A DNA stretch of 63,947 nucleotides, counting the filler, from Nitrospinae bacterium RIFCSPLOWO2_12_FULL_45_22 (GTDB lineage: Bacteria > 2-12-FULL-45-22): the NCBI GenBank assembly GCA_001803565.1. It is 6 parts of 6 records of this genome, joined end to end, with 100 filler letters (N's around TTAATTAATTAA, not from the genome) between each part and the next. Parts side by side here need not be neighbours in the genome. Positions count along the whole stretch, not along the records: positions 20,885 to 26,673 come from MHDQ01000149.1; 5 more parts are not named here. The stretch is one strand, 5' to 3'. The position numbers and the translations under genes were made by a program. Shown here piece by piece: positions 2,201 to 59,061 of this stretch (positions are counted from its first letter, which is position 1; each line of letters opens with the position of its first letter). The notes beneath the pieces are model-generated. The model was not told the DNA's origin. It searched no databases and was given only the letters and a program-made list of their open reading frames with translations.

Positions 2201-4330
2201 ATGATTCATAACCCAATCTCAGAGTCGCTAGCATTACCCAAAAGACTGCAGGGTACCGATGGGGTTCGGGGGGTAGCCTGCCCCGCTGATCATCCTTCTG
2301 TCGCTGGGCTCACACCAGTAGATGCCTTTCTCAAAAAAGGAATACTGACCGAAGAGTTTGTTGAACTGTACTGCTTTTGCTATGTAAAGTTACTGGAGCA
2401 AGAGTCGGTCTGGCAGCCTGGTCAGGAGATCGTTATTGGTTGGGACCCAAGAGATGACCAGGGTATCTATCATCAGGCGGCTATTAGAGGTGTCTGTAAG
2501 GCCGGCGCAAAGGCGGTAGCAATAGGGATATTGCCTACCCCGGCAGTACCGCTCTACTTGCTTCATCAAGAGGCCAGAGGGGGTATAATGATTACTGCCT
2601 CCCATAACCCGCCGGACCAGAATGGGATCAAGCTATTCAGTAAGACCCTGGGCTTAAAGCCACTGCCAGCCGATGATCAGCAGCTAACCTCCTTAATATA
2701 CCAAACCCCCTACTGGCAAGCCTATCAGTGTCCCTTAGAAGGATCTTATGAAGATGGGCATGATCAAGCCCTTGGAGTCTTCCTGAAATTCTTTGAGATT
2801 TCCAGCAATACCTGGCTAGAAAAAAAAGACCTCCTGCGCCACCTGATACTGATTATAGACCCCGCATATGGTTGCTGTCGAGGGTTGGCTAGTAAGGTCT
2901 TTAATCAATTAGGGGTAAAAGAGGTTATTGAGGTAAATAATGATCCTCGAGGACAGGTGAATGTAAACTCTGGTGTAGCTGGCTTAGAAGGGGCCAGAGA
3001 AATAGATAGCCAGTTACAGAGCGATTCTGGTCATATTTTTCAAGATTACAAGGTTGTCCAGACTATGTTTGAGATAGGCAGAAAATACCATGATAGTATT
3101 ATCCGGGGCAATATATGGGTAGCCGGAGCAGTCTTCGATGCCGATGGAGATCGGTTTTACCGGTTAGATTATGACCCACTCAGGGATAGGATCATAATCT
3201 TATCGGGTGATGAGATTGCCTATCATCAAGCGAAATACTTGATAAACCGCTTCCCGAAAGAATTATTAGGCGCCCCTTATGTGAATACAGTTGAGAGCGA
3301 CCTGAACTCCTCTCTGGCTGCCGCTGAGTTGGGCTACTGTCCAATAATCGAAGCCGTGGGTGACAAATGGCTCCTGGTACAGGGCGCTCTCAACTGGTTA
3401 GAGGCACGGTTGGACCATGATGGTAAAAAACACCTGGGAGAGCTGAAGCAGAAAGGGGTTTCTGCTATAGCTGAGATCGAAGACCTCTTTAGAAGTTCAA
3501 AGTCCAAAGCTCAAAGTTCAAAGTCTAAAGATCAAACCCCTGCTCTATGCCGCTATGAACCAGAGAGTTATCCAACTGGCCAAAGATTTAGGATAATTAA
3601 GGGCTACAGCATAGGCAGTGAAACCTCGGGCCATACCATAACCCCGGGGTTGCTTAATACCAATGCAGATATTACCATACCCGTATTTATTGGTAATGCC
3701 CTGAAGAGTGCGGTCAATACCTTTGTCGCTACTGAATCCCTTTATCACCGCTCAGATATTGCCAGGTATATTGATCAAGTTCATATGCCTTTCCCGCGCG
3801 GTTTTCAAAAATCCCTCCCGGTATATTATACCGATAAAACCAGGTTTTATAATGGCTCTCCCCTCTGGCACCAATTAGAAGCAACCATAAAAGAAGACAG
3901 GTCAGGCTTATGGGTAAAAAGGGTATACCCCCAGGAACGGGATATGTTATACTTAACCTTTAATGATCACGAAGGAGGACAGAAAGGAGCCCTCTTTATC
4001 CGTAATTCCGGCACTGAAGATAAGACTGTGGTCAATCTGAGGGGTTCCAGGAAAGACGGTGACAAGTTGTTGGCCGTGGGCCAGACCGTTCTAAAGTTGC
4101 TCTTCCAAGATCTTAAAGACCAAAACCATAACTATGCCCAGGCCGAAACACAAATCTTAAAGACCTTGACCGAAAGGGGGCCCTGCACCCCAGATGATCT
4201 GCTATCTTTGGTTCCCGGAATTAACTGGGACCGGCTCTTTAACGAACTAAGTAAACAAAGATTAATAGAATATAGGGATGGTCGGGTTTGCTTAACTTCT
4301 CTGGGCTCCTGGTATATCAAAAAAAGCTAA
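2201..4330 (+). CDS. Long alpha-D-phosphohexomutase (GlmM/PMM-like) with extra C-terminal region
   Basis: GTDGVRG, TASHNP, FDADGDR, VGDK, GSETSGH, RNSGTE motifs. Confidence 0.8.
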   Translation: MIHNPISESLALPKRLQGTDGVRGVACPADHPSVAGLTPVDAFLKKGILTEEFVELYCFCYVKLLEQESVWQPGQEIVIGWDPRDDQGIYHQAAIRGVCKAGAKAVAIGILPTPAVPLYLLHQEARGGIMITASHNPPDQNGIKLFSKTLGLKPLPADDQQLTSLIYQTPYWQAYQCPLEGSYEDGHDQALGVFLKFFEISSNTWLEKKDLLRHLILIIDPAYGCCRGLASKVFNQLGVKEVIEVNNDPRGQVNVNSGVAGLEGAREIDSQLQSDSGHIFQDYKVVQTMFEIGRKYHDSIIRGNIWVAGAVFDADGDRFYRLDYDPLRDRIIILSGDEIAYHQAKYLINRFPKELLGAPYVNTVESDLNSSLAAAELGYCPIIEAVGDKWLLVQGALNWLEARLDHDGKKHLGELKQKGVSAIAEIEDLFRSSKSKAQSSKSKDQTPALCRYEPESYPTGQRFRIIKGYSIGSETSGHTITPGLLNTNADITIPVFIGNALKSAVNTFVATESLYHRSDIARYIDQVHMPFPRGFQKSLPVYYTDKTRFYNGSPLWHQLEATIKEDRSGLWVKRVYPQERDMLYLTFNDHEGGQKGALFIRNSGTEDKTVVNLRGSRKDGDKLLAVGQTVLKLLFQDLKDQNHNYAQAETQILKTLTERGPCTPDDLLSLVPGINWDRLFNELSKQRLIEYRDGRVCLTSLGSWYIKKS

Positions 4331-4447
4331 AAGTGAAAAACGCAAAGTGAAAAGCTGGGAAATAATTACTTAGTTTTGCGCCTTTCGCTTTAAGCGTTGC
4401 GTCTCTACAGTTATGAATAATTCTTGATAAAACCTAAGCCGGCATAA

Positions 4448-5278
4448 GTGGGGATTATATCTGTGGTACCATTAGAGGATTTTTGGGGTCACTTAGATAG
4501 CTTTACCCATAAAGGGCTATTTGCTGATATTCAATTCCCCTGGGAAGCAGTAGCCCGGATCAGGATTTATATTGAGCAGTTCCTGGCCTCTCTAGGCAAA
4601 GGGTCTCCCTATGACTTACGGCGTCTACCAGGGGTTTCCCTGCAACAGGTTTTAGATGGAGAAGGGAATATTAAAGAAAGGATGTTAGTTACCCAGGCAT
4701 GTATCCAGGAAAACCACGATATTTATCTGGAAGACCTGGGCATCTATATCGGAAAATACACTGTTATCGAACCTGGTGTTATTATCAAATCCCGGGCTAT
4801 TATTGGTGAAAATAGTGAAATTCGCCAGGGAGCTTATCTCAGGGGAGGAGTAATTATCGGTAATTACTGCGTTGTGGGCCATACTACCGAGGTAAAGAAC
4901 TCTGCTTTCTTAGATGGTTCGGAAGCGGGGCATTTTGCCTATATCGGCGATAGCATCTTGGGCAACCATGTCAACCTGGGCGCAGGCACTAAACTAGCCA
5001 ACCTGCAGTTCAGGACCCCTCAAGAAAGGAATACCGGTACTATTAATCCCATCAAAATAACTATCGGAGAGGAAAGATACGATACTAAATTAACCAAACT
5101 GGGGGCTATCCTGGGCGATAATGGGGAGACCGGGTGTAATACGGTCACCTCACCCGGCACCCTGATAGGACGTAACTCCTGGGTTTATCCCAATACCACC
5201 GTGCGGAAAGGCCTTTATCCACCACACTCCATCATCCGCCCTAAAGATAATGAATTAAAGATAGGAGTAATGGAGTAG
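4448..5278 (+). CDS. Left-handed beta-helix acetyltransferase related to the C-terminal domain of GlmU-like proteins
   Basis: Hexapeptide repeats; HFAYIGDSILG..VNLGAGT..ANL; KLGAILGD; glmS operon context. Confidence 0.75.
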   Translation: MGIISVVPLEDFWGHLDSFTHKGLFADIQFPWEAVARIRIYIEQFLASLGKGSPYDLRRLPGVSLQQVLDGEGNIKERMLVTQACIQENHDIYLEDLGIYIGKYTVIEPGVIIKSRAIIGENSEIRQGAYLRGGVIIGNYCVVGHTTEVKNSAFLDGSEAGHFAYIGDSILGNHVNLGAGTKLANLQFRTPQERNTGTINPIKITIGEERYDTKLTKLGAILGDNGETGCNTVTSPGTLIGRNSWVYPNTTVRKGLYPPHSIIRPKDNELKIGVME

Positions 5279-5295: not shown

Positions 5296-6411
5296 ATGAT
5301 AGAAGAATTCGAAGCCCAATATAATAATAGGTATCAGATATTAAAGGGTCTAAAGGCCCAGGGTAAAAGATTAATAGGCTGGGTCTGTACCTATGTCCCG
5401 GAAGAGATCATCCATGCTGCCGGTATGCACCCTTTCCGGATTGTAGGCCGGGAGAGTGATACACCTTTGGCCAATGCCTATCTTTATTCCAATATTTGCT
5501 CCTTCACCAGAAGTTGCCTGGAGGAAGGCTTAAACCGCAATCTATCCTTTATGGACGGTTTGGTAACCACCAATACTTGCGACCATATCCGACGGCTCTA
5601 TGATGTCTGGTTCAAATATATTGACACCCCTTATAAGAAGATTCTCGCCCAGCCCTGTACTACTTCTCAGAGTTGTCTCAGTTATTTCAAACAGGAGTTC
5701 ATACAGTTTAGAGAAGAGCTACAAAGGCACTTTCAGGTAGAGATTACTGATACTGCCTTAAAAGAATCTATAAAGCTGTTTAACCATATGAGAAGCTTAT
5801 TAAAAAGGCTCTATCTCTTGAGGAAACTCGACCCGCCACCCATCTCTGGGGAAGAGGTATGCCAGGTAGTCATGGCGGGGATGGTTTTACCTAAAGAGGG
5901 ATATATTACGCTGCTAGAATCCTTATTGAAACGACTAGAAAGCAGGCAACCTCGGTCGCCAAAGAATGGCCAACCCAGGCTGATGGTTATTGGCAGTGAG
6001 CTAGATAATCCTATATACATTAAGATTATAGAAGACTCTGGCACTTTAGTAGTGGCTGATGACCTTTGCTGCGGCAGTCGGTATTTCTGGGACCTGGTGG
6101 AAGAAGATAAGGACCCTATAGAGGCCCTGGCAGGAAGGTACCTCACTAAAATGCCCTGTGCCCGCATGCATCCCTCCTCCAGCCGTGTACTACTCTTGAA
6201 AACCCTGGCCCAAGAATTCAACGTAGAAGGCGTCATTTATCAATCTATAAAATTCTGTGATCTGCATGCCGGCATATTTCCCGTCATAAAAGCCGGTTTT
6301 GATGACCTGGGTATCCCAGTCCTTAAACTAGAGCGGGAATATCTGTTAGCCGGCGCAGGTCAAACCAAGACCCGCATCCAGGCCTTCTTGGAAATGCTCA
6401 AAGAACAATAG
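5296..6411 (+). CDS. 2-hydroxyacyl-CoA dehydratase family subunit (HgdB/FldC-like)
   Basis: CTYVPEEII.AAG, NICSF, TCD, DDLC.GSR, KFCD, TRIQAFLEML. Confidence 0.88.
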   Translation: MIEEFEAQYNNRYQILKGLKAQGKRLIGWVCTYVPEEIIHAAGMHPFRIVGRESDTPLANAYLYSNICSFTRSCLEEGLNRNLSFMDGLVTTNTCDHIRRLYDVWFKYIDTPYKKILAQPCTTSQSCLSYFKQEFIQFREELQRHFQVEITDTALKESIKLFNHMRSLLKRLYLLRKLDPPPISGEEVCQVVMAGMVLPKEGYITLLESLLKRLESRQPRSPKNGQPRLMVIGSELDNPIYIKIIEDSGTLVVADDLCCGSRYFWDLVEEDKDPIEALAGRYLTKMPCARMHPSSSRVLLLKTLAQEFNVEGVIYQSIKFCDLHAGIFPVIKAGFDDLGIPVLKLEREYLLAGAGQTKTRIQAFLEMLKEQ

Positions 6412-6490
6412 TGGGAAAAGATTTGACCTTCCTTAAACTTAACCACGAATGACACGAAGTAACGAATTACACGAATAGCTCTTATCCCTG

Positions 6491-8386
6491 ATGAAGAAAG
6501 CGATATCTATCTTATTGTGGGGGTTCTTATCTGTTTTAGGGGCTATTGCTTTTATCTTTATTACCCAGATGTTCTATCCGGGCGAGCGGGTCAACGCCCT
6601 CTGGCTCGTGATAGCTGCCGTCTGCTTTTATCTTATTGCCTATCGCCTATATGCCTCATTTTTGGCGGTAAAAGTCTTTGCGTTAGACGATACGAACATT
6701 ACACCAGCTTACCGGCTAGCAGACAGTAAGGACTATTGCCCTACTAACAAATGGGTCTTATTCGGCCATCATTTTGCTGCCATTGCCGGTGCCGGGCCCC
6801 TGATAGGGCCGGTCTTAGCAGCCCAGTTCGGTTATTTGCCGGGGGCCTTGTGGCTCCTTATTGGTGCAGTATTTGCTGGTGGTGTACATGATTTTATTAT
6901 CCTGATGGCCTCGGTGCGGCGAAATGGCCTCTCCTTAGCAGAGATTGCCCGCAGGGAGGTAGGGCTCGTGAGTGGTATTGCTGCGGCCCTATGCATCCTT
7001 TTCATCATTATTGTGGCTTTGGCTGGATTGGGCTTAGTGGTAATAAATGCCTTGACCCATAGCCCCTGGGGTACCTTCTCTATCGGTATGACTATCCCGA
7101 TTGCTTTACTGATAGGATTCTATCTCCATTCCTTTAGGCCGGGCAAAGTAGCAGAAGTTTCTATCCTGGGGGTATCCCTCCTCTTGCTGGCAGTGATCTT
7201 TGGTGGCCGCATCCCTGGTTCCTGGCTCCATCCCTTTTTTGACCTGGATCGCAATATCTTGATCATCCTGATGGCTATCTATGGTTTTTTTGCGTCGGTC
7301 TTGCCCGTCTGGATGCTGTTGGCCCCCAGGGACTATCTGAGTACCTATATGAAGATCGGTACCGTCTTCCTCTTGGCCCTCGGGGTAATGATCATAGCCC
7401 CAACTATACAGATGCCGGCTACTACAGCCTTTGTTGACGGTGGAGGGCCAGTAATCCCAGGCGCCTTATTCCCTTTTATGTTTATAACTATCGCCTGTGG
7501 TGCCGTTTCAGGGTTCCATTCCCTAATAGCTTCCGGCACCACCCCCAAGATGATCGAGAAAGAATCCCATATGAAACTGATAGGGTTTGGGGCTATGCTG
7601 ACCGAGGGTTTTGTAGGTATCATTGCCCTTATTGCCGCTACTATCCTTATCCCAGGTGATTATTTTAGCATTAATACCCACCTCAGCCCTGAGCTGTTAG
7701 CTAAGCTAGGTTTTCCGGTTGGGCGGATAAAAGAGCTTTCTCAACTATTAGGTATAGAGGTAACGGGCCGGCCCGGTGGCGCCGTTTCTCTGGCAGTGGG
7801 GATGGCCTCGATCTTCTCCTCGTTGCCAGGTATGAAACATTTGTTGCCTTATTGGTATAATTTTGCTATCATGTTTGAGGCCCTATTCATACTTACTACT
7901 ATTGATGCCGGTACACGGGTGGCCCGCTTTATCTTACAAGAAATCGGGGGTTATGCCTACAAACCCCTGGGGAGAACCAACTGGCTCCCTGGGACCCTAC
8001 TTACCAGTGCTGTGGTAGTAAGTGCCTGGGGCTATCTGATTTATTCTGGGAGTATAGCTACTATCTGGCCCATGTTTGGGGTCGCTAACCAGCTCCTGGC
8101 AGCCTTTGCCTTGAGTGTAGGAACCACGGTTCTCATAAAGATGGGGAAGGTCCGCTACATCTGGGCCACTTTAGTCCCTATGGCTTTCATGGTAGCTGTT
8201 ACTTTGACAGCGTCCTGGAAACTTTTCTTTAGCTATCTGGATAATACTAGCAAGTCCTTTAGCTTCACTATTGATGCCATGTTAGTGGCTTTGATGGCGT
8301 CTTTAGTAATAGTGATCTTGTTGGACTCCGGTTGGAAGTGGTTGAAGAGCGCCGTAAGTGGTGAGGCAGTAAGTTGTTCCCATTGA
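6491..8386 (+). CDS. cstA: Carbon starvation protein A (peptide/pyruvate transporter)
   Basis: LFGHHFAAIAGAGPLIGP, ACGAVSGFH, TTIDAGTR, WPMFG.ANQL. Confidence 0.95.
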   Translation: MKKAISILLWGFLSVLGAIAFIFITQMFYPGERVNALWLVIAAVCFYLIAYRLYASFLAVKVFALDDTNITPAYRLADSKDYCPTNKWVLFGHHFAAIAGAGPLIGPVLAAQFGYLPGALWLLIGAVFAGGVHDFIILMASVRRNGLSLAEIARREVGLVSGIAAALCILFIIIVALAGLGLVVINALTHSPWGTFSIGMTIPIALLIGFYLHSFRPGKVAEVSILGVSLLLLAVIFGGRIPGSWLHPFFDLDRNILIILMAIYGFFASVLPVWMLLAPRDYLSTYMKIGTVFLLALGVMIIAPTIQMPATTAFVDGGGPVIPGALFPFMFITIACGAVSGFHSLIASGTTPKMIEKESHMKLIGFGAMLTEGFVGIIALIAATILIPGDYFSINTHLSPELLAKLGFPVGRIKELSQLLGIEVTGRPGGAVSLAVGMASIFSSLPGMKHLLPYWYNFAIMFEALFILTTIDAGTRVARFILQEIGGYAYKPLGRTNWLPGTLLTSAVVVSAWGYLIYSGSIATIWPMFGVANQLLAAFALSVGTTVLIKMGKVRYIWATLVPMAFMVAVTLTASWKLFFSYLDNTSKSFSFTIDAMLVALMASLVIVILLDSGWKWLKSAVSGEAVSCSH

Positions 8387-12857: not shown

Positions 12858-12957
12858 NNNNNNNNNNNNNNNNNNNNNNNNNNNNNNNNNNNNNNNNNNN
12901 NTTAATTAATTAANNNNNNNNNNNNNNNNNNNNNNNNNNNNNNNNNNNNNNNNNNNN
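12858..12957. other. Artificial contig linker (N-TTAATTAATTAA-N)
   Basis: Six-frame-stop spacer inside an N run. Confidence 0.95.
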
Positions 12958-20784: not shown

Positions 20785-20883
20785 NNNNNNNNNNNNNNNN
20801 NNNNNNNNNNNNNNNNNNNNNNNNNNNNTTAATTAATTAANNNNNNNNNNNNNNNNNNNNNNNNNNNNNNNNNNNNNNNNNNN
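20785..20883. other. Artificial contig linker
   Basis: N-TTAATTAATTAA-N. Confidence 0.95.
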
Positions 20884-22092
20884 NGTGGGTGTTACTAAAA
20901 CATCGCACTTCTCGAAGGCGTCTTTGAAATCTTGACGGAAAAGGGTCCTGACTTGTTGGGCCTTACGGTAATAGGCTTCATAATAGCCAGCGCTGAGGGT
21001 ATAGGTACCCAGCATGATGCGCCTCTTTACCTCCGGGCCAAAACCTTCTTTTCTGGTCTTTTGGTACATGTCTAATAAGCCCTGGGCCTTCGGGGTCCTA
21101 TAGCCATACTTTACCCCATCATATCGGGCCAGGTTAGAGCTGGCCTCGGCGGTAGCTATGATGTAATAAGTGGCTAAGGCATAAGGAGTATGGGGCAGAG
21201 ATACTTCCAGACAAGTAGCACCCAGGTCTTCATATATCTTGAGTGCTTGCCTGATTTTATCCTCTACCTCCGGGTCTATCCCTTCAATAAAATACTCTCT
21301 GGGAACCCCGATCCTTAAGCCCTTTACCTCAGGAACCAATGCCTGGGTATAATCGGGCACGGGCAGGTCTACACAGGTAGAGTCAAAGGGGTCTTTACCG
21401 GCTATAATATTGAGCAGGATAGCAGTATCAGTCACATCCTTAGTCATCGGCCCTATCTGATCCAGCGAAGAGGCATAAGCTACCAGACCAAACCGGGATA
21501 CCCGGCCATAAGTGGGCTTCAGTCCTACAATACCACAATGAGAGGCTGGCTGGCGGATAGAGCCGCCGGTATCAGAACCTAAGGCTGCCATACATTCATC
21601 AGCGGCAACAGCCGCCGCCGACCCACCACTGGAGCCACCCGGTACATATTCCGGGTTCCACGGGTTATGGGTCACGCCAAAGGCAGAGTTTTCTGTAGAT
21701 GAGCCCATAGCGAACTCATCCATATTAGTCTTACCCAGGAATATAGCCCCATTGTCCCGCAACCGTCCTATGACCGCAGCATCATAAGGAGGAATATAAT
21801 TGGCCAGGACCCTTGAGGCACAGGTAGTCTTGATCCCTTTAGTACACAATACATCCTTGATAGCCAGGGGTATGCCCAGTAATGGCGGCAGGTGATCCCC
21901 TTTTGCTAATAATCTATCCGCCGCACGGGCCTGTTCTATAGCCGCTTCTGGGGTAAGGGTGATATAGGCATGGATTTTGTTTTCTACTTGCTCAATACGC
22001 TGTAGGACAGCCTTAGTAACCTCTTCAGAGCTTACTGATTTTTTCCGTAACAGGCCCTGCAATTCGTGGATAGTTAGCTGGTATAATTCCAT
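20884..22092 (-). CDS. gatA: Asp/Glu-tRNA amidotransferase subunit A (3' partial)
   Basis: [43 protein letters not shown]. Confidence 0.96.
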
Positions 22093-22093
22093 A

Positions 22094-22381
22094 TTATTCA
22101 ATAATCTTAGGTACTTTATAATGACTCTGTTCCTGGGCTGGGGCATTAGAGAGGGTGACATGGCCCCAGGGTCCTACCTTTACCTGGTCTTCTTTAAATA
22201 CATTGGTAAATTCCAGGATATGAGAGGTAGGTTCGATACCCGTGGTATCCAATTCATTAAGCTTATCCATATATTCCAGGGTCGCACTCAACTGATGAGT
22301 AAACTTCTCTATCTCCTCTTCACCCAATTCCAGCCGGGCTAACCTGGCCACATGCTCTACCTCTTTCCGATCAATCTTCAA
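22094..22381 (-). CDS. gatC: Asp/Glu-tRNA amidotransferase subunit C
   Basis: [24 protein letters not shown]...Y.VPKIIE; TTG start after GGAG. Confidence 0.93.
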
Positions 22382-22391
22382 AGGTTGTCTC

Positions 22392-22829
22392 CTATTCCAC
22401 AATAGTTATCTGATCGCCGACCTTTACCCGGCCACTCTTTAATACCCGGGCAAATACTCCCTCGGTAGGCATAACACATTCCCCTACCTGATAGAAAATG
22501 GCACAGGGGTCATGGCAGACCTTACCTAATTGGGTCAGCTCTACCAAAACTTCTTCTCCAATAGCTAGCCTGGTACCGAGCGGCAAACAAGTCAAGTCAA
22601 TCCCCTCGGTGGTAATATTTTCTGCAAAATCGCCCGGCTTTACCTCTAAGCCTTTGGCCCGCATCTTCTCGATGCTCTCCTGAGCTAGCAAACTCACCTG
22701 CCGCAACCCTTCACCAGCATGAGCATCGTCCCGTAGGCCAAAATCCTCTTCTATCCAGACCTTCCCTACGGAGGTTTTCTTCTGACCTTTCTCTTTACTG
22801 ATATTAACCGAAATAACTTTACCTTTCAT
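22392..22829 (-). CDS. MOSC-domain protein
   Basis: [33 protein letters not shown]. Confidence 0.9.
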
Positions 22830-23346
22830 AATTCTCTCGGTCGTGCTCACCTGCTCTAACATATTCACCACTTCGACCACCTTTTTTACTGATCAATCTT
22901 ATCTCAGAGATAACCATCGCTTTGTCTACGGCCTTACACATATCATAGATAGTTAAGGCCGCAACAGATACGGCCGTAAGGGCCTCCATCTCTACGCCAG
23001 TTCTCCCCAGGCACTCGGTAGTAGCAGTTATTTCTATCCCATTACCTTGCTGTAATAGTTGGAAAGAGAGATCAATATGGGTAAGTTCCAGAGGGTGACA
23101 CAAAGGAATGAGATCCCAGGTTTTTTTTGCCGCCATTATCCCGGCTATCTTGGCGGCACTGAAGACATCGCCTTTAGCAATCTGATTATCCAGGATTAAC
23201 CGGCAGGTCTCGGGTTTCATATACACCACACCCCGGGCTACTGCTGCCCGTTGAGTAACAGCCTTTCCCGTCACATCAACCATCCGGGCCTTGCCAGTGG
23301 TATCCAGATGCGTTAGTCCCTCTTCCATTACCTTGGCCTTTACCAT
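22819..23346 (-). CDS. moaC: Cyclic pyranopterin monophosphate synthase
   Basis: [28 protein letters not shown]. Confidence 0.96.
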
Positions 23347-23885
23347 TATGTTTTCCTGATCCTCTGACTAGCACCCACGTCTCTAAACGTGCTGTAACCT
23401 TTCACTGGTGTTGTCACCCTGAGCGGATCCATGAGAGCCTTCGCTTTTGCTCACAATGACATAATGATGGAAAAGTTGATGGATGGGTACAAATTACTTT
23501 AGGGTAACTGAAAAGTCAAGTTTAGGCCAAAGCGAACTTTTTCTTACCCCAGGGTTTACCCAGTGATGAGCCGAGGAATAGATATAGCTTGAGTAACCAT
23601 CTTATATGTTTGAGCAAAATTTTTTCTCTGTTTTAACAGGTGCTCTTCAAAAACAATGGAGAGAGCTTTCTGTGGGCTTCAACATGAATCGGTGCAAGGG
23701 TAATGAATGGGCATACATGGGATTTTTCCTCTATGCTTTTAGGATATTGCCTTGAAGACAGAGGTTTTGGTTGTGAGAATAATGGGAGATTTATGACAGG
23801 CTTGTTAAAGAGGGTATAATGTTTCAAGCATTCTGACAAAAGTCATTCCTTACGGTTTGAAATAAATGCCCCTCTGGGAATTATT

Positions 23886-23939
23886 ATGTAAAATATTTTA
23901 CTCAAAATTCTTGACAATGTAAAATATTTTACTTACACT
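23886..23939 (+). promoter_or_regulatory. Sigma70 promoter with two palindromic operators
   Basis: TTGACA (23911-23916), 17 bp, TACACT (23934-23939); ATGTAAAATATTTTACT at 23886-23902 and 23917-23933. Confidence 0.85.
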
Positions 23940-24010
23940 CTTGTTGATGAAGCTAAGTTTTCTCTGTTGCTATAAATCTCTAGATATCAGACATGGACAT
24001 GGAATTTTAA

Positions 24011-24307
24011 ATGACCTTAGAAGAAATACAATCATTGGTGTTAAAAGGCAGATACGATTATTCTAATAAAGTCAGATCTTTTATGGAAGAAGGATGGTAT
24101 TCTGAGGAAGATTTGGAGTGTTGTATTAGAAGTGCTACAAAGATTTACAAAGTGGAGAAAGATGAATTAAAAGCCTCAGTTGACGGAAAGAAGTATGTAA
24201 TCATTGGGAAAGATACATATGGATGTTTATTCTATACCTGTGGCAAAGTCATTAAGGATGACGAGGGTAAGCTTTATTTCTTTATTACAGCACATAAAGC
24301 AGATTAA
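24011..24307 (+). CDS. DUF4258/MqsR-like putative toxin (RelE-superfamily-like)
   Basis: 98 aa; KYVIIG and FFITAH pattern; directly upstream of a zinc-finger-HTH gene. Confidence 0.6.
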   Translation: MTLEEIQSLVLKGRYDYSNKVRSFMEEGWYSEEDLECCIRSATKIYKVEKDELKASVDGKKYVIIGKDTYGCLFYTCGKVIKDDEGKLYFFITAHKAD

Positions 24308-24318
24308 AGGGGAAAACA

Positions 24319-25161
24319 ATGTTTAATTATATTTGTGAAGAGTGCGGTAAGGGTACTGTCAAAGAAAAAGTTTTTGAAAATTATCGAACAAAAATTAAAG
24401 GGTATCCTTTTGTTGTTGATAAGGCCATAATTGGCGTTTGCGATCGATGCGGAGCGAAACATTTTAAGGCGAATGAAACAAAACGTTGGGAAGAACTTTA
24501 TAACAAGGATTTAGAATTAAAACATATTTCACTACTACCTGACGAAATTGAAGCAGTAAGGAAATCTTTGGGCCTTTCGATGGAAGATTTTGCGTATCTT
24601 ATCGGGTGTACACGTCAATCGATTTATAACTGGGAGAAAAAAGATAGAGAAAAGCCCCAATCTCGAATGGCCGATTTACTTATAAAACTTGTTCGTTATT
24701 CTTTTGAGGTTGGCAAAGTAGATGTTATCAATTTCCTTACAGAAGAGGCCAAAAAATTAGGAATTACGATAGAAGTGGCAAAACAAACTTCTTCTACCCT
24801 TATAGGTAACATAATCCACCTTAATGTTAAAAAAGTTCCCAGAGATTATTTTCAAAAGCCAAAAGGCAGTCTTTCATTAGCCGCTGTAGCAGTTGAAGAA
24901 AGAGAGATCACAATAGCTGAATCCTTGGAGCAAGAATTAACTGGCATTTTACATTATGACTATGGAAGGGCTGCTCTATCGTTAGAGATAGAAAAAAATA
25001 CAATTGGATTAAAGATCGTTGATTTTGAACTGGTAACAAATAATGATAGGCATTATATTAGGCAGGATGTAAAAATTGAAGATAACCGCATATTATTGCT
25101 CTCGGATACAGAATATACAGAAGATAAAGTTAGAGAAATCATTTTAAAGCCGAAATCCTGA
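24319..25161 (+). CDS. MqsA-like antitoxin (YgiT-type Zn finger + XRE HTH) with long C-terminal extension
   Basis: CEECG...CDRCG; IEAVRKSLGLSMEDFAYLIGCTRQSIYNWE; 280 aa. Confidence 0.75.
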   Translation: MFNYICEECGKGTVKEKVFENYRTKIKGYPFVVDKAIIGVCDRCGAKHFKANETKRWEELYNKDLELKHISLLPDEIEAVRKSLGLSMEDFAYLIGCTRQSIYNWEKKDREKPQSRMADLLIKLVRYSFEVGKVDVINFLTEEAKKLGITIEVAKQTSSTLIGNIIHLNVKKVPRDYFQKPKGSLSLAAVAVEEREITIAESLEQELTGILHYDYGRAALSLEIEKNTIGLKIVDFELVTNNDRHYIRQDVKIEDNRILLLSDTEYTEDKVREIILKPKS

Positions 25162-25173
25162 AAAAGGTCAAAA

Positions 25174-26346
25174 ATGGGTATGGAGGAGCATGTAGAAAGG
25201 TTAAAAAGACTGAAAGGGCTTCTTCGCGAAGCCTTCATTCTGCTTCCTGCTTTTAATAATAGACAAGAGACTCAACCATTAGACGAGCTTTTTAATAATA
25301 TTTGTAGATTACTTTTCACCGATGATTTTTACCTTCATCTGTGGGATGAAGGAGCCCTTTATCAATTAGTAGAGTTTTTCAAGGCTAAAACACCTAATCC
25401 AACAGTATACGGAGAGCGGCTTACTAAACTCTCAGAGCGTAAGAATTTTGTCCAACAGACAAATGAGTTCTTTTTCTCAATCCTTAGTCATGAATTTCCT
25501 ATGGAAGAAGTTGTCAATAGAGTATCTGCACTTACCAAGATTGATGAAGCAGCCTTCTTGAAACTTAAGGCTTCAGGCCATTTGCAGGATATTAGAGCAA
25601 GTAAGTCTCCTGCCTCAGAAAAGATTGAGGCTTTCATTGAACATCTTATAAATGATATGGGCGTCAATTTTGGAGAGGCAGAAGACGGTTTGAGGCAGGT
25701 TCTTGCTTCTATAAAGGCACAGGAAACCCCGGGAAGGGCAAACGCCCTTTTGGTTAATACATCAAGTAATGCAGGGATTCTTATTCCATTATCAACTCGT
25801 CTCCAACTCGGTAAAGGTGAAGTACACTGTCTCATATCTAGTGGTGGCGATTTCAAGACAGCAATAGATAGAGCCAGGCATTTGTTGCTCAGCAACGGTT
25901 TTCTCAATAGGATGGACGATGTAGATTATTCATTAGATATTACCGAGGCAAGCTATAGTGGGGATTCAATAGGGTTGGCTGCTGCTATTGCTATGTATGG
26001 TGCTGCCACAAAGCAATCAATAGACCCTTATACATCCTTTACAGGTAATATAAACCTTGAAGGTAACCAATACAAGATTACACCTGTTAAAGGAATTAGC
26101 CAAAAACTTGATGCTGCTATACTGAACGGATGTCGGCGTGTTTTTATCCCTATACAGAACCACTCAGAAATTAGTGGCGATTATACTAAAAAATTACAGA
26201 TTATTTGTGTTAGTGATATTACAGATGTACTATTGAAATTACAGACTTCACTTGAACCTCTCCCCGGCGATACACTCCAGATAAGAAAAATTAATTTTTT
26301 ACGGGCGTATTGCCAAAATACCCTCAACCCCGATGCCACACTTTGA
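25174..26346 (+). CDS. Unknown N-terminal domain plus Lon (S16) protease domain, no AAA+ module; possibly 3'-truncated
   Basis: SGDSIGLAAAIAM, FTGNINLEG, PVKGISQKLDAA, VFIP..N (Ser-Lys dyad pattern). Confidence 0.72.
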   Translation: MGMEEHVERLKRLKGLLREAFILLPAFNNRQETQPLDELFNNICRLLFTDDFYLHLWDEGALYQLVEFFKAKTPNPTVYGERLTKLSERKNFVQQTNEFFFSILSHEFPMEEVVNRVSALTKIDEAAFLKLKASGHLQDIRASKSPASEKIEAFIEHLINDMGVNFGEAEDGLRQVLASIKAQETPGRANALLVNTSSNAGILIPLSTRLQLGKGEVHCLISSGGDFKTAIDRARHLLLSNGFLNRMDDVDYSLDITEASYSGDSIGLAAAIAMYGAATKQSIDPYTSFTGNINLEGNQYKITPVKGISQKLDAAILNGCRRVFIPIQNHSEISGDYTKKLQIICVSDITDVLLKLQTSLEPLPGDTLQIRKINFLRAYCQNTLNPDATL

Positions 26347-26538
26347 TGGAATATAGCGGCCGATCCTTTCAAGAAAAGGCAGGCTTGACTCTCTTAAGAT
26401 GATAAGTAAATCTATGTCACTCCCTGGCACTGCTTCGCCTCTGGCAAAAGAGCCAAAGAGTATCACTTGCTCAATTTCAGGATAGTGTTCTCGAAGTTCC
26501 TTAATAGATTTTCGTAATGAGTGAGAAAGATTAGCCAT
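26299..26538 (-). CDS. Minimal nucleotidyltransferase (MNT), probably truncated
   Basis: LFGSFARG...GSDIDLLII; ends shortly after GIGV and overlaps the opposite gene. Confidence 0.7.
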   Translation of the reverse strand: MANLSHSLRKSIKELREHYPEIEQVILFGSFARGEAVPGSDIDLLIILRESSLPFLERIGRYIPSKCGIGVEGILAIRP

Positions 26539-26673
26539 TATTGGTTAAGTAATTGGCGCATCTTCAGTCGCAGGGCATTTATCTGAATAAAACCCTGGGC
26601 TTGTTTCTGATCATAAACCTGATCAGCTTCAAAAGTGGCATAGGAATCGCTATAGAGAGATTTTTCCGCCTTC
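26538..26673 (-). CDS. argG: Argininosuccinate synthase, 3' end (not in ORF track)
   Basis: [37 protein letters not shown]...*; TAATG overlap with next gene. Confidence 0.8.
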
Positions 26674-26773
26674 NNNNNNNNNNNNNNNNNNNNNNNNNNN
26701 NNNNNNNNNNNNNNNNNTTAATTAATTAANNNNNNNNNNNNNNNNNNNNNNNNNNNNNNNNNNNNNNNNNNNN
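26674..26773. other. Artificial contig linker
   Basis: N-TTAATTAATTAA-N. Confidence 0.95.
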
Positions 26774-27246
26774 TCATGAAACCCTGGCTGGCCTTGTACC
26801 GGCTGAAGATTGCGGTCCGGCAGGTCGCTGCGGATATGCAACTGGCACGGCTGCGGGCCGTCTCTACCAATGATCGGTATCGGGTGGTATTTGATGTGAA
26901 CAACAACCAATATGACCTGAAAAAATGTGTTACCGATGACTGTGATACCGCAAATGATACCGTGGAAAAGGATAACCAGGAACTGCCCAAAGGCATTGTC
27001 TTTGGCTACAAATCAGGCGCTCAGGGGCCGCCCGGTGGCCCTACTGGCGCTATTACTGATAGTGTTACCTTTTCAAGCGATAGAGCAAGCTTTTCTCCAA
27101 AAGGGACTGCTGGCCAGGGCACGGTATATATAAAGAACGAAAATGATGATACCGTTGCGGTAACCGTTGCTGAAACATCTACTGGCTTGATCAGGCTCTA
27201 TCACCTCAAGCCCGGAACCACTAACGACTGGGAACAGATCAGCTAA
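26774..27246 (+). CDS. GspH/FimT-like minor pilin (N-terminal prepilin part missing at contig edge)
   Basis: YRLK.AVRQVAADMQLAR.RAV, F.PKGTA..GTVY. Confidence 0.7.
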
Positions 27247-33526: not shown

Positions 33527-33787
33527 NNNNNNNNNNNNNNNNNNNNNNNNNNNNNNNNNNNNNNNNNNNNNNNNNNNNNNNNNNNNNNNNNNNNNNNNNN
33601 NNNNNNNNNNNNNNNNNNNNNNNNNCAAAATCAATTCCTTCTTGTTAATTGCTAATTTTACATTGTTAATTTTGCAATGAAGGCAGAAGCGGAGTGAACC
33701 TCTCATTTGCTCCTCCTTAGTGACTTAGTGCCCTGGCGGCTAAGCGGTTACACTATTTGCCTTTGCCGACGGCTGATAGCTGATGGT

Positions 33788-36593: not shown

Positions 36594-36621
36594 NNNNNNN
36601 NNNNNNNNNNNNNNNNNNNNN

Positions 36622-49664: not shown

Positions 49665-49764
49665 NNNNNNNNNNNNNNNNNNNNNNNNNNNNNNNNNNNN
49701 NNNNNNNNTTAATTAATTAANNNNNNNNNNNNNNNNNNNNNNNNNNNNNNNNNNNNNNNNNNNN
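49665..49764. other. Artificial contig linker
   Basis: N-TTAATTAATTAA-N. Confidence 0.95.
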
Positions 49765-58961: not shown

Positions 58962-59061
58962 NNNNNNNNNNNNNNNNNNNNNNNNNNNNNNNNNNNNNNN
59001 NNNNNTTAATTAATTAANNNNNNNNNNNNNNNNNNNNNNNNNNNNNNNNNNNNNNNNNNNN
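58962..59061. other. Artificial contig linker
   Basis: N-TTAATTAATTAA-N. Confidence 0.95.

Follow-up and report, generated by a model that had tools for sequence, protein, structure and literature searches.

CalpL, the closest described counterpart of the system treated here, combines an N-terminal domain, a Lon protease domain and a SAVED sensor. According to the preprint describing it (bioRxiv 10.1101/2024.05.08.593097), CalpL bound to cA4 forms filaments and cuts its partner CalpT, which consists of a MazF-like and a DUF2080 domain, in the sequence LAAA between A204 and A205. In the post-cleavage complex reported there, a 95-residue C-terminal fragment of CalpT is found with the N-domain of CalpL, the new ...LAA end of CalpT is described as a degron for cellular proteases, and the SAVED domain also degrades cA4, which limits the response. 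In a review of the RelE/ParE superfamily (PMC11980606), DUF4258 appears as an uncharacterized toxin family with a BECR fold, and 17 fusions of DUF4258 with MqsA are counted. Here, we analyze an operon of three genes (genes 1 to 3) in a 63,947-nucleotide stretch of joined contigs (the window) from Nitrospinae bacterium RIFCSPLOWO2_12_FULL_45_22 (assembly GCA_001803565.1). An earlier, sequence-only reading had proposed it as a new tripartite system of a toxin, an extended MqsA-like antitoxin and a stand-alone Lon protease. We find that the locus is almost certainly a copy of a conserved four-gene cassette that has been truncated, and comparison of its relatives gives good support to the view that the intact cassette would encode a dedicated, signal-gated protease that cuts the extended antitoxin.

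The structural conclusion turns on gene 3. As the sequence-only reading had described, its product joins an N-terminus of no recognized family to a Lon domain with a Ser-Lys dyad: Lon_C matches residues 262-354 with E = 9.7e-10 (38.8 bits against a cut-off of 21.1), all 34 aligned family members have G263, S265 and K311, and gene 3 shows no Walker A motif (G....GK[ST]) and no AAA family match, that is, no ATPase module. The description as a stand-alone protein has to be abandoned. Homologues can be aligned with it over residues 1-381 and continue beyond this point into RNase HIII, the sequences diverging after CQN381, and complete relatives are 766-808 residues long. At the DNA level, homology to the closest relatives, loci L005 and L006 (79%), extends from position 23882 to 26315 and then stops, while homology to locus L008 ends at 26319. 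The part that is missing from the window gene and present in the relatives comprises the TBP-like N-terminal and the catalytic domain of RNase HIII; in L006, the C-terminal half reaches 184.6 bits with TIGR00716 (rnhC, cut-off 161.2), matches PF01351 with E = 1e-27, and matches RNase HIII chains in the PDB with E = 6e-41. The RNase HIII motifs are conserved, and conservation within the family is highest in the catalytic domain, with a mean pairwise identity of 0.70 as compared to 0.36 for the N-domain, the least conserved part of the protein. An exhaustive search of representative sequences yielded 26 chains of at least 700 residues with both Lon and RNase HIII profiles among the 150 matches listed; the shorter proteins found were fragments or breaks. 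In a quick tree search (midpoint root, several long branches), the window protein lies inside a clade of full-length forms, with a Shimodaira-Hasegawa-like approximate likelihood ratio test (SH-aLRT) value of 98, and the short form is derived because it nests in this way. Neither the RNase HIII part nor a gene for the tetratricopeptide repeat (TPR) and cold-shock-domain (CSD) protein that follows it in relatives was found in the rest of this 85%-complete genome. Gene 3 is the 5' half of an N-domain/Lon/RNase HIII fusion of about 780 residues, cut at about residue 381; what is left is a pseudogene-like remnant and no novel stand-alone protease.

We considered whether the truncation arose as an assembly chimera and rejected this; the deletion junction is taken to be real because independent contigs carry it. 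The identical 390-residue protein occurs on 9 contigs (the longest of 33,342 nucleotides), together with two single-residue variants, and also in metagenome locus L028. The allele is carried by 20 DNA runs from 17 studies of soil, groundwater and sediment metagenomes; no RNA run is among the listed runs carrying it. Four of these 20 runs were examined for contigs across the junction, and one bridged it (X7, with a contig corresponding to 26175-26517 that shows strain differences); X14 and X19 gave no contig over the junction, and the contig of X3, which ends 14 nucleotides past it, was not counted as bridging. As the allele variants differ by single residues only, the deletion looks recent. 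Downstream of its cassette, locus L008 carries an intact convergent pair of genes for MntA (97 residues) and HepT (116 residues), which suggests an arrangement like that in this distant relative as the starting state for a deletion from the middle of gene 3 to the middle of mntA. The RNase HIII module was lost in one deletion together with the TPR-CSD gene and the end of the MntA gene, and presumably with the HepT gene as well.

To establish the form from which the window copy descends, a Lon protein alignment was used to scan genomes, where 9 of 177 pattern matches proved to be loci of the family, and metagenomes, where 55 of 252 did so, the window's own contig (L027) included. These 64 loci fell into 49 groups at ≥95% identity, leaving 48 non-window groups to be counted, and all their open reading frames (ORFs) were scored with profiles built from the first loci. 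The Lon and RNase HIII parts form a single ORF of at least 740 residues in 33 of the 48 groups, to which L080 (770 residues, N-domain unmatched by the profile) may be added. In 8 groups the fusion is cut by a contig end only and in 6 it is broken inside a contig (L007/L038, L012, L046, L047, L057/L076 and L077); in two further groups, L010/L051 and L029, broken copies stand next to an intact one. Directly downstream, a gene for a TPR protein with a cold-shock domain (425-462 residues) is present in all 38 assessable groups. Directly upstream, 43 of the 46 groups that could be assessed have a gene with the C-terminal domain of gene 2, so that the objection foreseen by the sequence-only reading, namely that the Lon gene might not keep company with extended antitoxins elsewhere, fails. 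The normal form of the system thus has four genes, not the three proposed: a small RNase-type toxin, an antitoxin/repressor, the N-domain/Lon/RNase HIII protein of about 780 residues, and the TPR and cold-shock protein. Among genome records, the hosts are metagenome-assembled genomes (MAGs) labelled Nitrospirota, Thermodesulfobacteriota, Myxococcota/'Deltaproteobacteria' and Chloroflexota.

The upstream toxin is of the gene 1 type in 22 groups, BrnT-like in 12 (PF04365 with E = 3.5e-5, below cut-off), of the RelE/ParE type TIGR02683 in 6 (119-122 bits against a cut-off of 62.85) and MazF/PemK-like in 3; no toxin was seen in 5 groups, in which the upstream DNA is missing. Toxins of four families (DUF4258/MqsR-like, BrnT-like, RelE-like and MazF-like) are thus interchangeable within the cassette. 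On the quick tree of the protease, the toxin-antitoxin type requires 7 changes as compared to a minimum of 4, and the gene 1 type alone requires at least 4 changes on well-supported branches. In L005, L007 and L008, genes 2 and 3 share 4 or 14 nucleotides. The MazF-type loci form a distant branch (L013:5456-11547, L080:1400-7451 and L081:2941-9184), in which the upstream set consists of the MazF/PemK-like protein, a sigma-70 region 4 protein of about 340 residues (in 3 of 3) and an uncharacterized protein of 330-350 residues; in L013, the cassette lies between BrxL and a PLD-helicase gene.

Comparison of the antitoxins shows their extension to be a portable C-terminal domain. Gene 2 is indeed a zinc-finger and helix-turn-helix (HTH) protein with a long C-terminal extension, as first proposed: it scores 67.3 bits with TIGR03830, the MqsA family (cut-off 61.8), and 29.4 bits with HTH_3 (E = 8.2e-7, cut-off 23), its match to PF15731 staying below cut-off (25.5 against 30 bits); the zinc ribbon has cysteines at C6, C9, C41 and C44, and about 155 residues beyond the HTH match no family. 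A PDB profile search with gene 2 left the C-terminal domain unmatched. When 26 relatives of gene 2 are aligned (3 of 28 ORFs were dropped as their calls ran into the upstream gene), one C-terminal domain of about 95 residues proves common to antitoxins with three kinds of N-terminal part, namely MqsA-like proteins, TIGR02684-type 'antidote' HTH proteins, and BrnA/zinc-finger proteins with an extra segment, which belong to the BrnT-type loci. L187, A188, A189, G209, L220 and L260 are invariant and E196, L211, Y213 and D214 nearly so. The LAA triplet stands at the start of the domain in 43 of 44 groups, the lone exception being cut by a contig end, and its distance to the C-terminus is 92-100 residues in nearly all groups. 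By contrast, the linker preceding LAA is the least conserved part of gene 2 (mean identity 0.27). From N- to C-terminus, the antitoxin thus consists of a toxin-specific part, a linker of variable sequence, the invariant LAA triplet and a domain of about 95 residues. A word-based search with the C-terminal region returned 14 clusters only, close to the 16 of the protease family and far fewer than the gene 1 family with at least 257 clusters, which marks the extended antitoxin as a special subset tied to the cassette.

For gene 1, which the sequence-only reading had called DUF4258-like, the relation is at most a distant one, seen through the family: the window protein itself has no Pfam match (E ≤ 0.1), no NCBIfam match and no PADLOC match. 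DUF4258 (PF14076) gave sub-threshold matches, the best with E = 1.6e-4, in 30 of 60 family members, a set made up of window gene 1, six locus-encoded copies and 53 sequences hand-picked from 120 matches listed; one relative carries the UniRef name DUF4258, and the Atlas lead for gene 1 scores 0.85. The AlphaFold2 model of gene 1 has a mean predicted local distance difference test (pLDDT) value of 94.8. Superimposed with VIA-align, it fits best on MqsR (3hi2_D, Z 9.8, root-mean-square deviation 2.6 Å over 83 residues), followed by the toxin-antitoxin toxin 7vd7_A (Z 8.2), BrnT (3u97, Z 6.9) and RelE/YoeB (Z about 5); a Foldseek search with the model was weak, with a best E of 0.01. The model makes gene 1 a candidate toxin with an MqsR/BrnT-like BECR fold; from the family matches, it is a putative distant relative of DUF4258.

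Upstream of gene 1, the 17-nucleotide sequence ATGTAAAATATTTTACT occurs in two exact copies (23886-23902 and 23917-23933), each enclosing the perfect palindrome GTAAAATATTTTAC. The repeats bracket a -35 element, TTGACA (23911-23916), and extend to a -10-like TACACT (23934-23939). Six of six aligned loci have both palindromes and the -35 element unchanged although their flanks have diverged, and L011, whose protease is 44% identical, shows a similar repeat pair around TTGACA. The layout is that expected if the HTH protein of gene 2 represses its own operon. This regulatory reading rests on the conserved operators and not on our promoter/terminator scan, which overall performed at chance level (9 found, 9.5 expected).

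These observations suggest how an intact cassette could work. The antitoxin would neutralize the toxin and repress the operon through the two palindromic operators, while its C-terminal domain would bind the protease, the N-domain being the probable docking site. The Lon domain would then be activated by a nucleic-acid cue, which might be perceived as RNA:DNA hybrids by RNase HIII and/or as single strands by the TPR-CSD protein, and the protease would cut the antitoxin at or next to LAA. The cut would leave an ssrA-like ...LAA end to be degraded by housekeeping proteases; with the toxin freed and the operon derepressed, growth would stop. The logic would be that of CalpL-CalpT, with RNase HIII replacing SAVED. 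The cassette is probably an infection- or stress-triggered growth-arrest switch, and the flanking genes suggest a role in defence. That the antitoxin is cut at LAA in particular has slightly better than an even chance, and the complete statement, a decayed copy of a cassette with this protease-gated mechanism, we consider fairly probable.

The window copy retains intact genes 1 and 2, the operators, LAA and the Lon dyad. It would most likely be an apparently intact, autoregulated MqsR/MqsA-like pair accompanied by an N-domain/Lon stub without its trigger, and it is probably disarmed because RNase HIII and the TPR-CSD gene were lost by the deletion. Should the protease depend on the sensor half for its activation, as CalpL does, the stub would be held in the off state and gene 3 would be a dead end. 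A constitutively active stub that keeps freeing the toxin is unlikely because the allele is widespread in metagenomes.

The genes around the cassette bear on its role. We inspected 81 of 110 flanking ORFs at 19 loci (18 groups); the remaining 29, namely locus-end, short or shadow ORFs and five of L028, were dropped by hand. Restriction-modification or BREX families (Eco57I/N6 methylases, type I HsdR/M/S, BrxL and a ResIII helicase with a PLD nuclease) adjoin the cassette in 6 of 18 groups (L006, L031, L008, L011/L051, L013 and L080), and helicase, RES, PIN or M78 genes do so in several more. No system model of PADLOC-DB v2 fits the window proteins or the cassettes of L006, L008 and L013, for which matches were obtained at the domain level only (BrxL, CARF_LON, capH, RmrA, CSD_V and TPR).

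Behind the cassette of L006 lies a small defence-type island, in which a two-gene pair (5330-5820, plus strand, 93 and 74 residues) that looks toxin-antitoxin-like by eye is followed by an Eco57I-type methylase/restriction gene (L006:5871-8543, minus strand). The cold-shock domain of the TPR-CSD partner (L006:3755-5077 and its equivalents) matches the retron Se72 effector family with 38 bits, below the cut-off of 82, and also gives the PADLOC match to CSD_V. Retrons produce RNA:DNA hybrids, and a match of this kind beside RNase HIII is suggestive; no reverse transcriptase was seen.

Besides the missing system model, several results speak against the proposed mechanism or against the reading of the window copy as decayed. 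By sequence, the Lon domain is closest to archaeal LonB domains, and CalpL is absent among its PDB sequence matches; similarly, DUF2080, the C-terminal domain of CalpT, is absent among the 25 Pfam families listed for the 26 gene 2 relatives. The shared antitoxin domain was not detected in the three MazF-type loci, where an hhalign comparison with their proteins of 330-350 residues gave a probability of 0.7%, which is not significant. The 1,065-residue protein P0037 unites an MqsA-like part, the C-terminal domain, the N-domain, Lon and RNase HIII in one reading frame and, as a natural fusion of antitoxin and protease, speaks for the mechanism; however, this singleton is known from one contig only, and a sequencing error could have produced it. 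The loci were found through Lon-domain motifs, which makes Lon-less copies invisible. In 12 of 18 groups the neighbours are housekeeping or ambiguous genes only, and none of the 18 pattern matches in viral contigs was related to the cassette. Finally, lineage-specific substitutions in the window copy, as raw counts of nonsynonymous and synonymous changes (N/S), are 3/12 for gene 1, 29/29 for gene 2 and 44/54 for gene 3, where the relatives with intact cassettes cover a range of 0.64-1.71; these counts, which have little power if the deletion is recent, are no more relaxed in the window copy than in the relatives, and the stub of gene 3 may on this ground still be under selection and functional.

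This last result also counts in favour of the alternative closest to the sequence-only reading, in which the 390-residue N-domain/Lon protein still cuts the extended antitoxin and the locus is a simpler, active three-gene variant. It would account for three open reading frames with dyad, LAA and operators intact, for N/S counts that are not raised in gene 3, for the spread of the allele over 20 runs, and for independent breaks elsewhere that likewise keep the N-domain and Lon (L007/L038 at residue 378, L047 at about residue 366 through insertion of an insertion sequence (IS), and P0021). We nevertheless regard it as unlikely. No other group has a contig-internal, cleanly ending Lon-only gene, the other short forms being breaks, and the domain deleted here is the very part that the family conserves most. 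The nine-codon tail of gene 3 is antisense MntA sequence, the apparent recency of the deletion weakens the N/S test, and the retention of Lon in broken copies is biased by the use of Lon motifs to find the loci.

A second alternative separates the toxin from the protease. The toxin-antitoxin pair would be an addiction or regulator cassette that merely rides with an independent Lon-RNase HIII and TPR-CSD system; in variants of this idea, the C-terminal domain would serve oligomerization or ligand binding, or the cut would only derepress transcription as in CapP-CapH, without involving the toxin. Gene 2 is indeed of a DNA-binding repressor type with conserved operators, its HTH weakly matches the PADLOC models capH and RmrA, the protease-repressor pairs CapP+CapH and PprI-DdrO are described as answering single-stranded DNA (ssDNA) or DNA damage, and RNase HIII could itself be the effector. 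However, a toxin gene is present in all 43 groups with upstream DNA (5 lack upstream sequence), and the N-terminal part of the antitoxin switches with the toxin family while the C-terminal domain stays. As toxin and antitoxin N-terminal part change together, the toxin is part of the conserved design, and we find independent modules improbable.

Weakest, and very improbable in our judgement, is protection as in toxin-antitoxin-chaperone (TAC) systems, in which the C-terminal domain would need to be bound by the Lon-RNase HIII and/or TPR-CSD protein to keep the antitoxin stable and in which loss of this partner, or its titration by nucleic acid, would free the toxin without proteolysis: one extension on several antitoxin families plus a conserved extra gene is the TAC pattern as set out in PMC5105189, and truncated copies keep the N-domain and Lon as if the cell were 'addicted', but invariant catalytic Ser and Lys residues are unexpected in a mere binding partner, the ChAD segments given in that paper are 30-42 residues long and mutually dissimilar whereas a conserved domain of about 95 residues with LAA is found here, and a SecB-like gene is absent from the cassette. 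The suggestion of the sequence-only reading that the protease replaces the chaperone is accordingly no more than an analogy, the extension being unlike the ChAD segments.

The gated protease can be taken further, into a joint reading that we put forward tentatively and consider doubtful, in which the intact family would be a new class of innate immune switch. RNase HIII would sense RNA:DNA hybrids, for example replication intermediates of phages or retro-elements, and, by destroying its own ligand, would act as a timer like SAVED in CalpL. Together with the TPR-cold-shock partner, it would switch on the fused Lon domain, which would clip the LAA-tagged docking domain off any antitoxin plugged in, exposing an ssrA-like degron and unleashing a toxin of any of the four families. 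The window would then represent a safe disarming, in which the trigger was deleted and toxin, antitoxin and docking half were kept.

The position of the truncation recurs in other copies. At the Lon/RNase HIII boundary, a span of about 17 codons contains four independent breaks, at about 26284-26316 in the window, at L007:9135-9252, at L047:3430-3440 and in P0021, and the break sites adjoin an AT-rich palindrome (AAAAATTAATTTTT in the window). In L047, a 544-residue transposase-like ORF (3376-5010, minus strand), IS66-like by eye only from its zinc-finger/DDE look, splits the Lon part (2331-3440) from the RNase HIII part (5441-6676); this break and that in the window are about 15 codons apart. 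The clustering could reflect a hot spot for recombination or insertion, selection for the N-domain/Lon half, or ascertainment bias from the Lon-motif search. In two distant Lon proteins, P0113 (378 residues) and P0121 (470 residues), TPR-like segments are fused in front of the Lon domain, which hints that TPR and Lon parts cooperate in related systems.

The coordinates of the locus are collected in Table 1. The operon lies on a contig of 5,789 nucleotides (window 20885-26673, G000:C149) of a genome in 321 contigs. It is as AT-rich and tightly spaced as originally described, with a GC content of 0.33-0.36 over 23750-25500 as compared to 0.44-0.52 in the flanks and with gaps of 11 and 12 nucleotides between genes 1 and 2 and genes 2 and 3, respectively. 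Its placement between moaC and argG is right as to the two flanking genes, with moaC (PF01967, E = 7.6e-60) upstream and the 3' end of argG (last 44 codons, 26538-26672, minus strand) downstream, but the operon does not directly abut argG, as an MntA-like remnant intervenes. The independent metagenome contig L028 with the same allele reads on into argG-argF-argD. The MntA remnant overlaps the end of gene 3, and its start overlaps the argG stop codon; it covers only positions 1-44 of 93 of the NTP_transf_2 profile, the C-terminal part of the domain being gone, scores 33 bits with NF047752 (MntA), below cut-off, and has no HepT partner. With it, the deletion scar carries a further toxin-antitoxin remnant.

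Table 1. Features of the locus and of the surrounding window (aa, amino acids)
Feature	Position in window	Strand	Remarks
Promoter-operator region	23886-23939	+	two exact 17-nt repeats, -35, -10-like
Gene 1	24011-24307	+	98 aa
Gene 2	24319-25161	+	280 aa
Gene 2, N-terminal part, residues 1-125	24319-24693	+	MqsA-family zinc ribbon and XRE-type HTH
Gene 2, LAA motif, codons L187-A188-A189	24877-24885	+	end of variable linker; predicted protease cleavage/degron site
Gene 2, C-terminal domain, residues 190-280	24886-25161	+	no Pfam or PDB sequence match
Gene 3	25174-26346	+	390 aa
Gene 3, N-terminal domain, residues 1-189	25174-25740	+	family-specific; no Pfam, PDB or Atlas match
Gene 3, Lon (S16) domain, residues 190-381	25741-26316	+	Ser265 codon 25966-25968; Lys311 codon 26104-26106
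Deletion junction and foreign 9-codon tail of gene 3	26317-26346	+	TLNPDATL, stop; MntA antisense
MntA-like nucleotidyltransferase remnant	26299-26538	-	79 aa; between gene 3 and argG
Contig-joining spacers	12858-12957, 20785-20884, 26674-26773, 49665-49764, 58962-59061; also 33527-33625, 36594-36621		

The window itself consists of several MAG contigs chained by spacers of 44 N, ttaattaattaa and 44 N. Because it joins separate contigs, gene order across the spacers is meaningless; a pilin-like GspH gene (26776-27246), for instance, sits on another contig (C150). Rfam and tRNA scans of the window gave no match. The genome set searched held only one other genome of the same phylum.

How chromosomal toxin-antitoxin modules are activated is a long-standing question. 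If the proposed mechanism is true, one toxin-antitoxin family would be activated by a dedicated signal-gated protease and not by bulk Lon/Clp turnover, and the cassette would be a second Lon-protease signalling system, independent of CRISPR, in which CalpL-type cutting at LAA exposes a degron. It could also provide a possible RNA:DNA-hybrid sensor in bacterial immunity, and LAA plus docking domain, already present on three antitoxin families, would be a ready module for engineered protease-controlled switches. For annotation, the message is that gene 3 of this genome is a pseudogene-like remnant. The literature searched, which left most subscription journals uncovered, held no description of the cassette, of a Lon-RNase HIII fusion or of a protease-linked extended antitoxin.

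Set beside described systems, the cassette shares single features with several of them. With MqsR-MqsA it has in common the toxin-first order, a gene 1 model that fits best on MqsR, a gene 2 that passes TIGR03830, and promoter palindromes; it differs in that gene 1 has no MqsR Pfam match and leans to DUF4258, in an antitoxin that is about 155 residues longer, and in an operon that runs on into a protease gene. TAC systems likewise join an accessory module to several toxin-antitoxin families through a C-terminal extension of the antitoxin, as PMC5105189 describes. The third gene here, however, is a protease-RNase fusion and not a SecB chaperone, a fourth gene is added, and the extension is a conserved domain of about 95 residues with LAA, whereas ChAD is characterized in that paper as short, non-conserved and aggregation-prone. 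CapP-CapH and PprI(IrrE)-DdrO also place a dedicated protease beside an HTH repressor that is cut on an ssDNA cue; these proteases, as their published descriptions have it, are zinc metallopeptidases, without a toxin gene and without RNase HIII. Canonical LonA and LonB differ from gene 3 by their AAA+ module and Walker A motif, and BrxL, to whose models the Lon domain shows weak matches (E = 2.8e-10), has an AAA+ ATPase that the cassette protein lacks. The C-terminal half of the complete relatives is RNase HIII at the equivalog level and in this respect resembles the housekeeping enzyme (rnhC); in the literature searched, no RNase HIII was described as fused to a protease.

The closest parallel is CalpL. 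Both proteins are ATPase-less Lon Ser-Lys proteases with an N-domain of their own and a C-terminal module related to nucleic acids; in both systems a toxin-antitoxin-like partner carries LAA followed by a C-terminal domain of about 95 residues (91-100 in the cassette), a likeness in sequence pattern to CalpT as the preprint presents it; and the MazF-like and sigma-70 region 4 proteins upstream in L013, L080 and L081 recall CalpT and CalpS. In contrast to CalpL, the cassette relatives carry RNase HIII instead of SAVED/CARF, no cas genes are among the 81 flanking ORFs scanned, PADLOC matches to the CARF_LON and SAVED_LON models are weak and confined to the Lon part, and sequence similarity is not detectable outside the Lon domain; the cassette has an extra TPR-CSD partner, and its output would be an RNase toxin, not a sigma factor. 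The family, apparently undescribed, would by analogy release a toxin-antitoxin-type regulator through a gated protease in the manner of CalpL.

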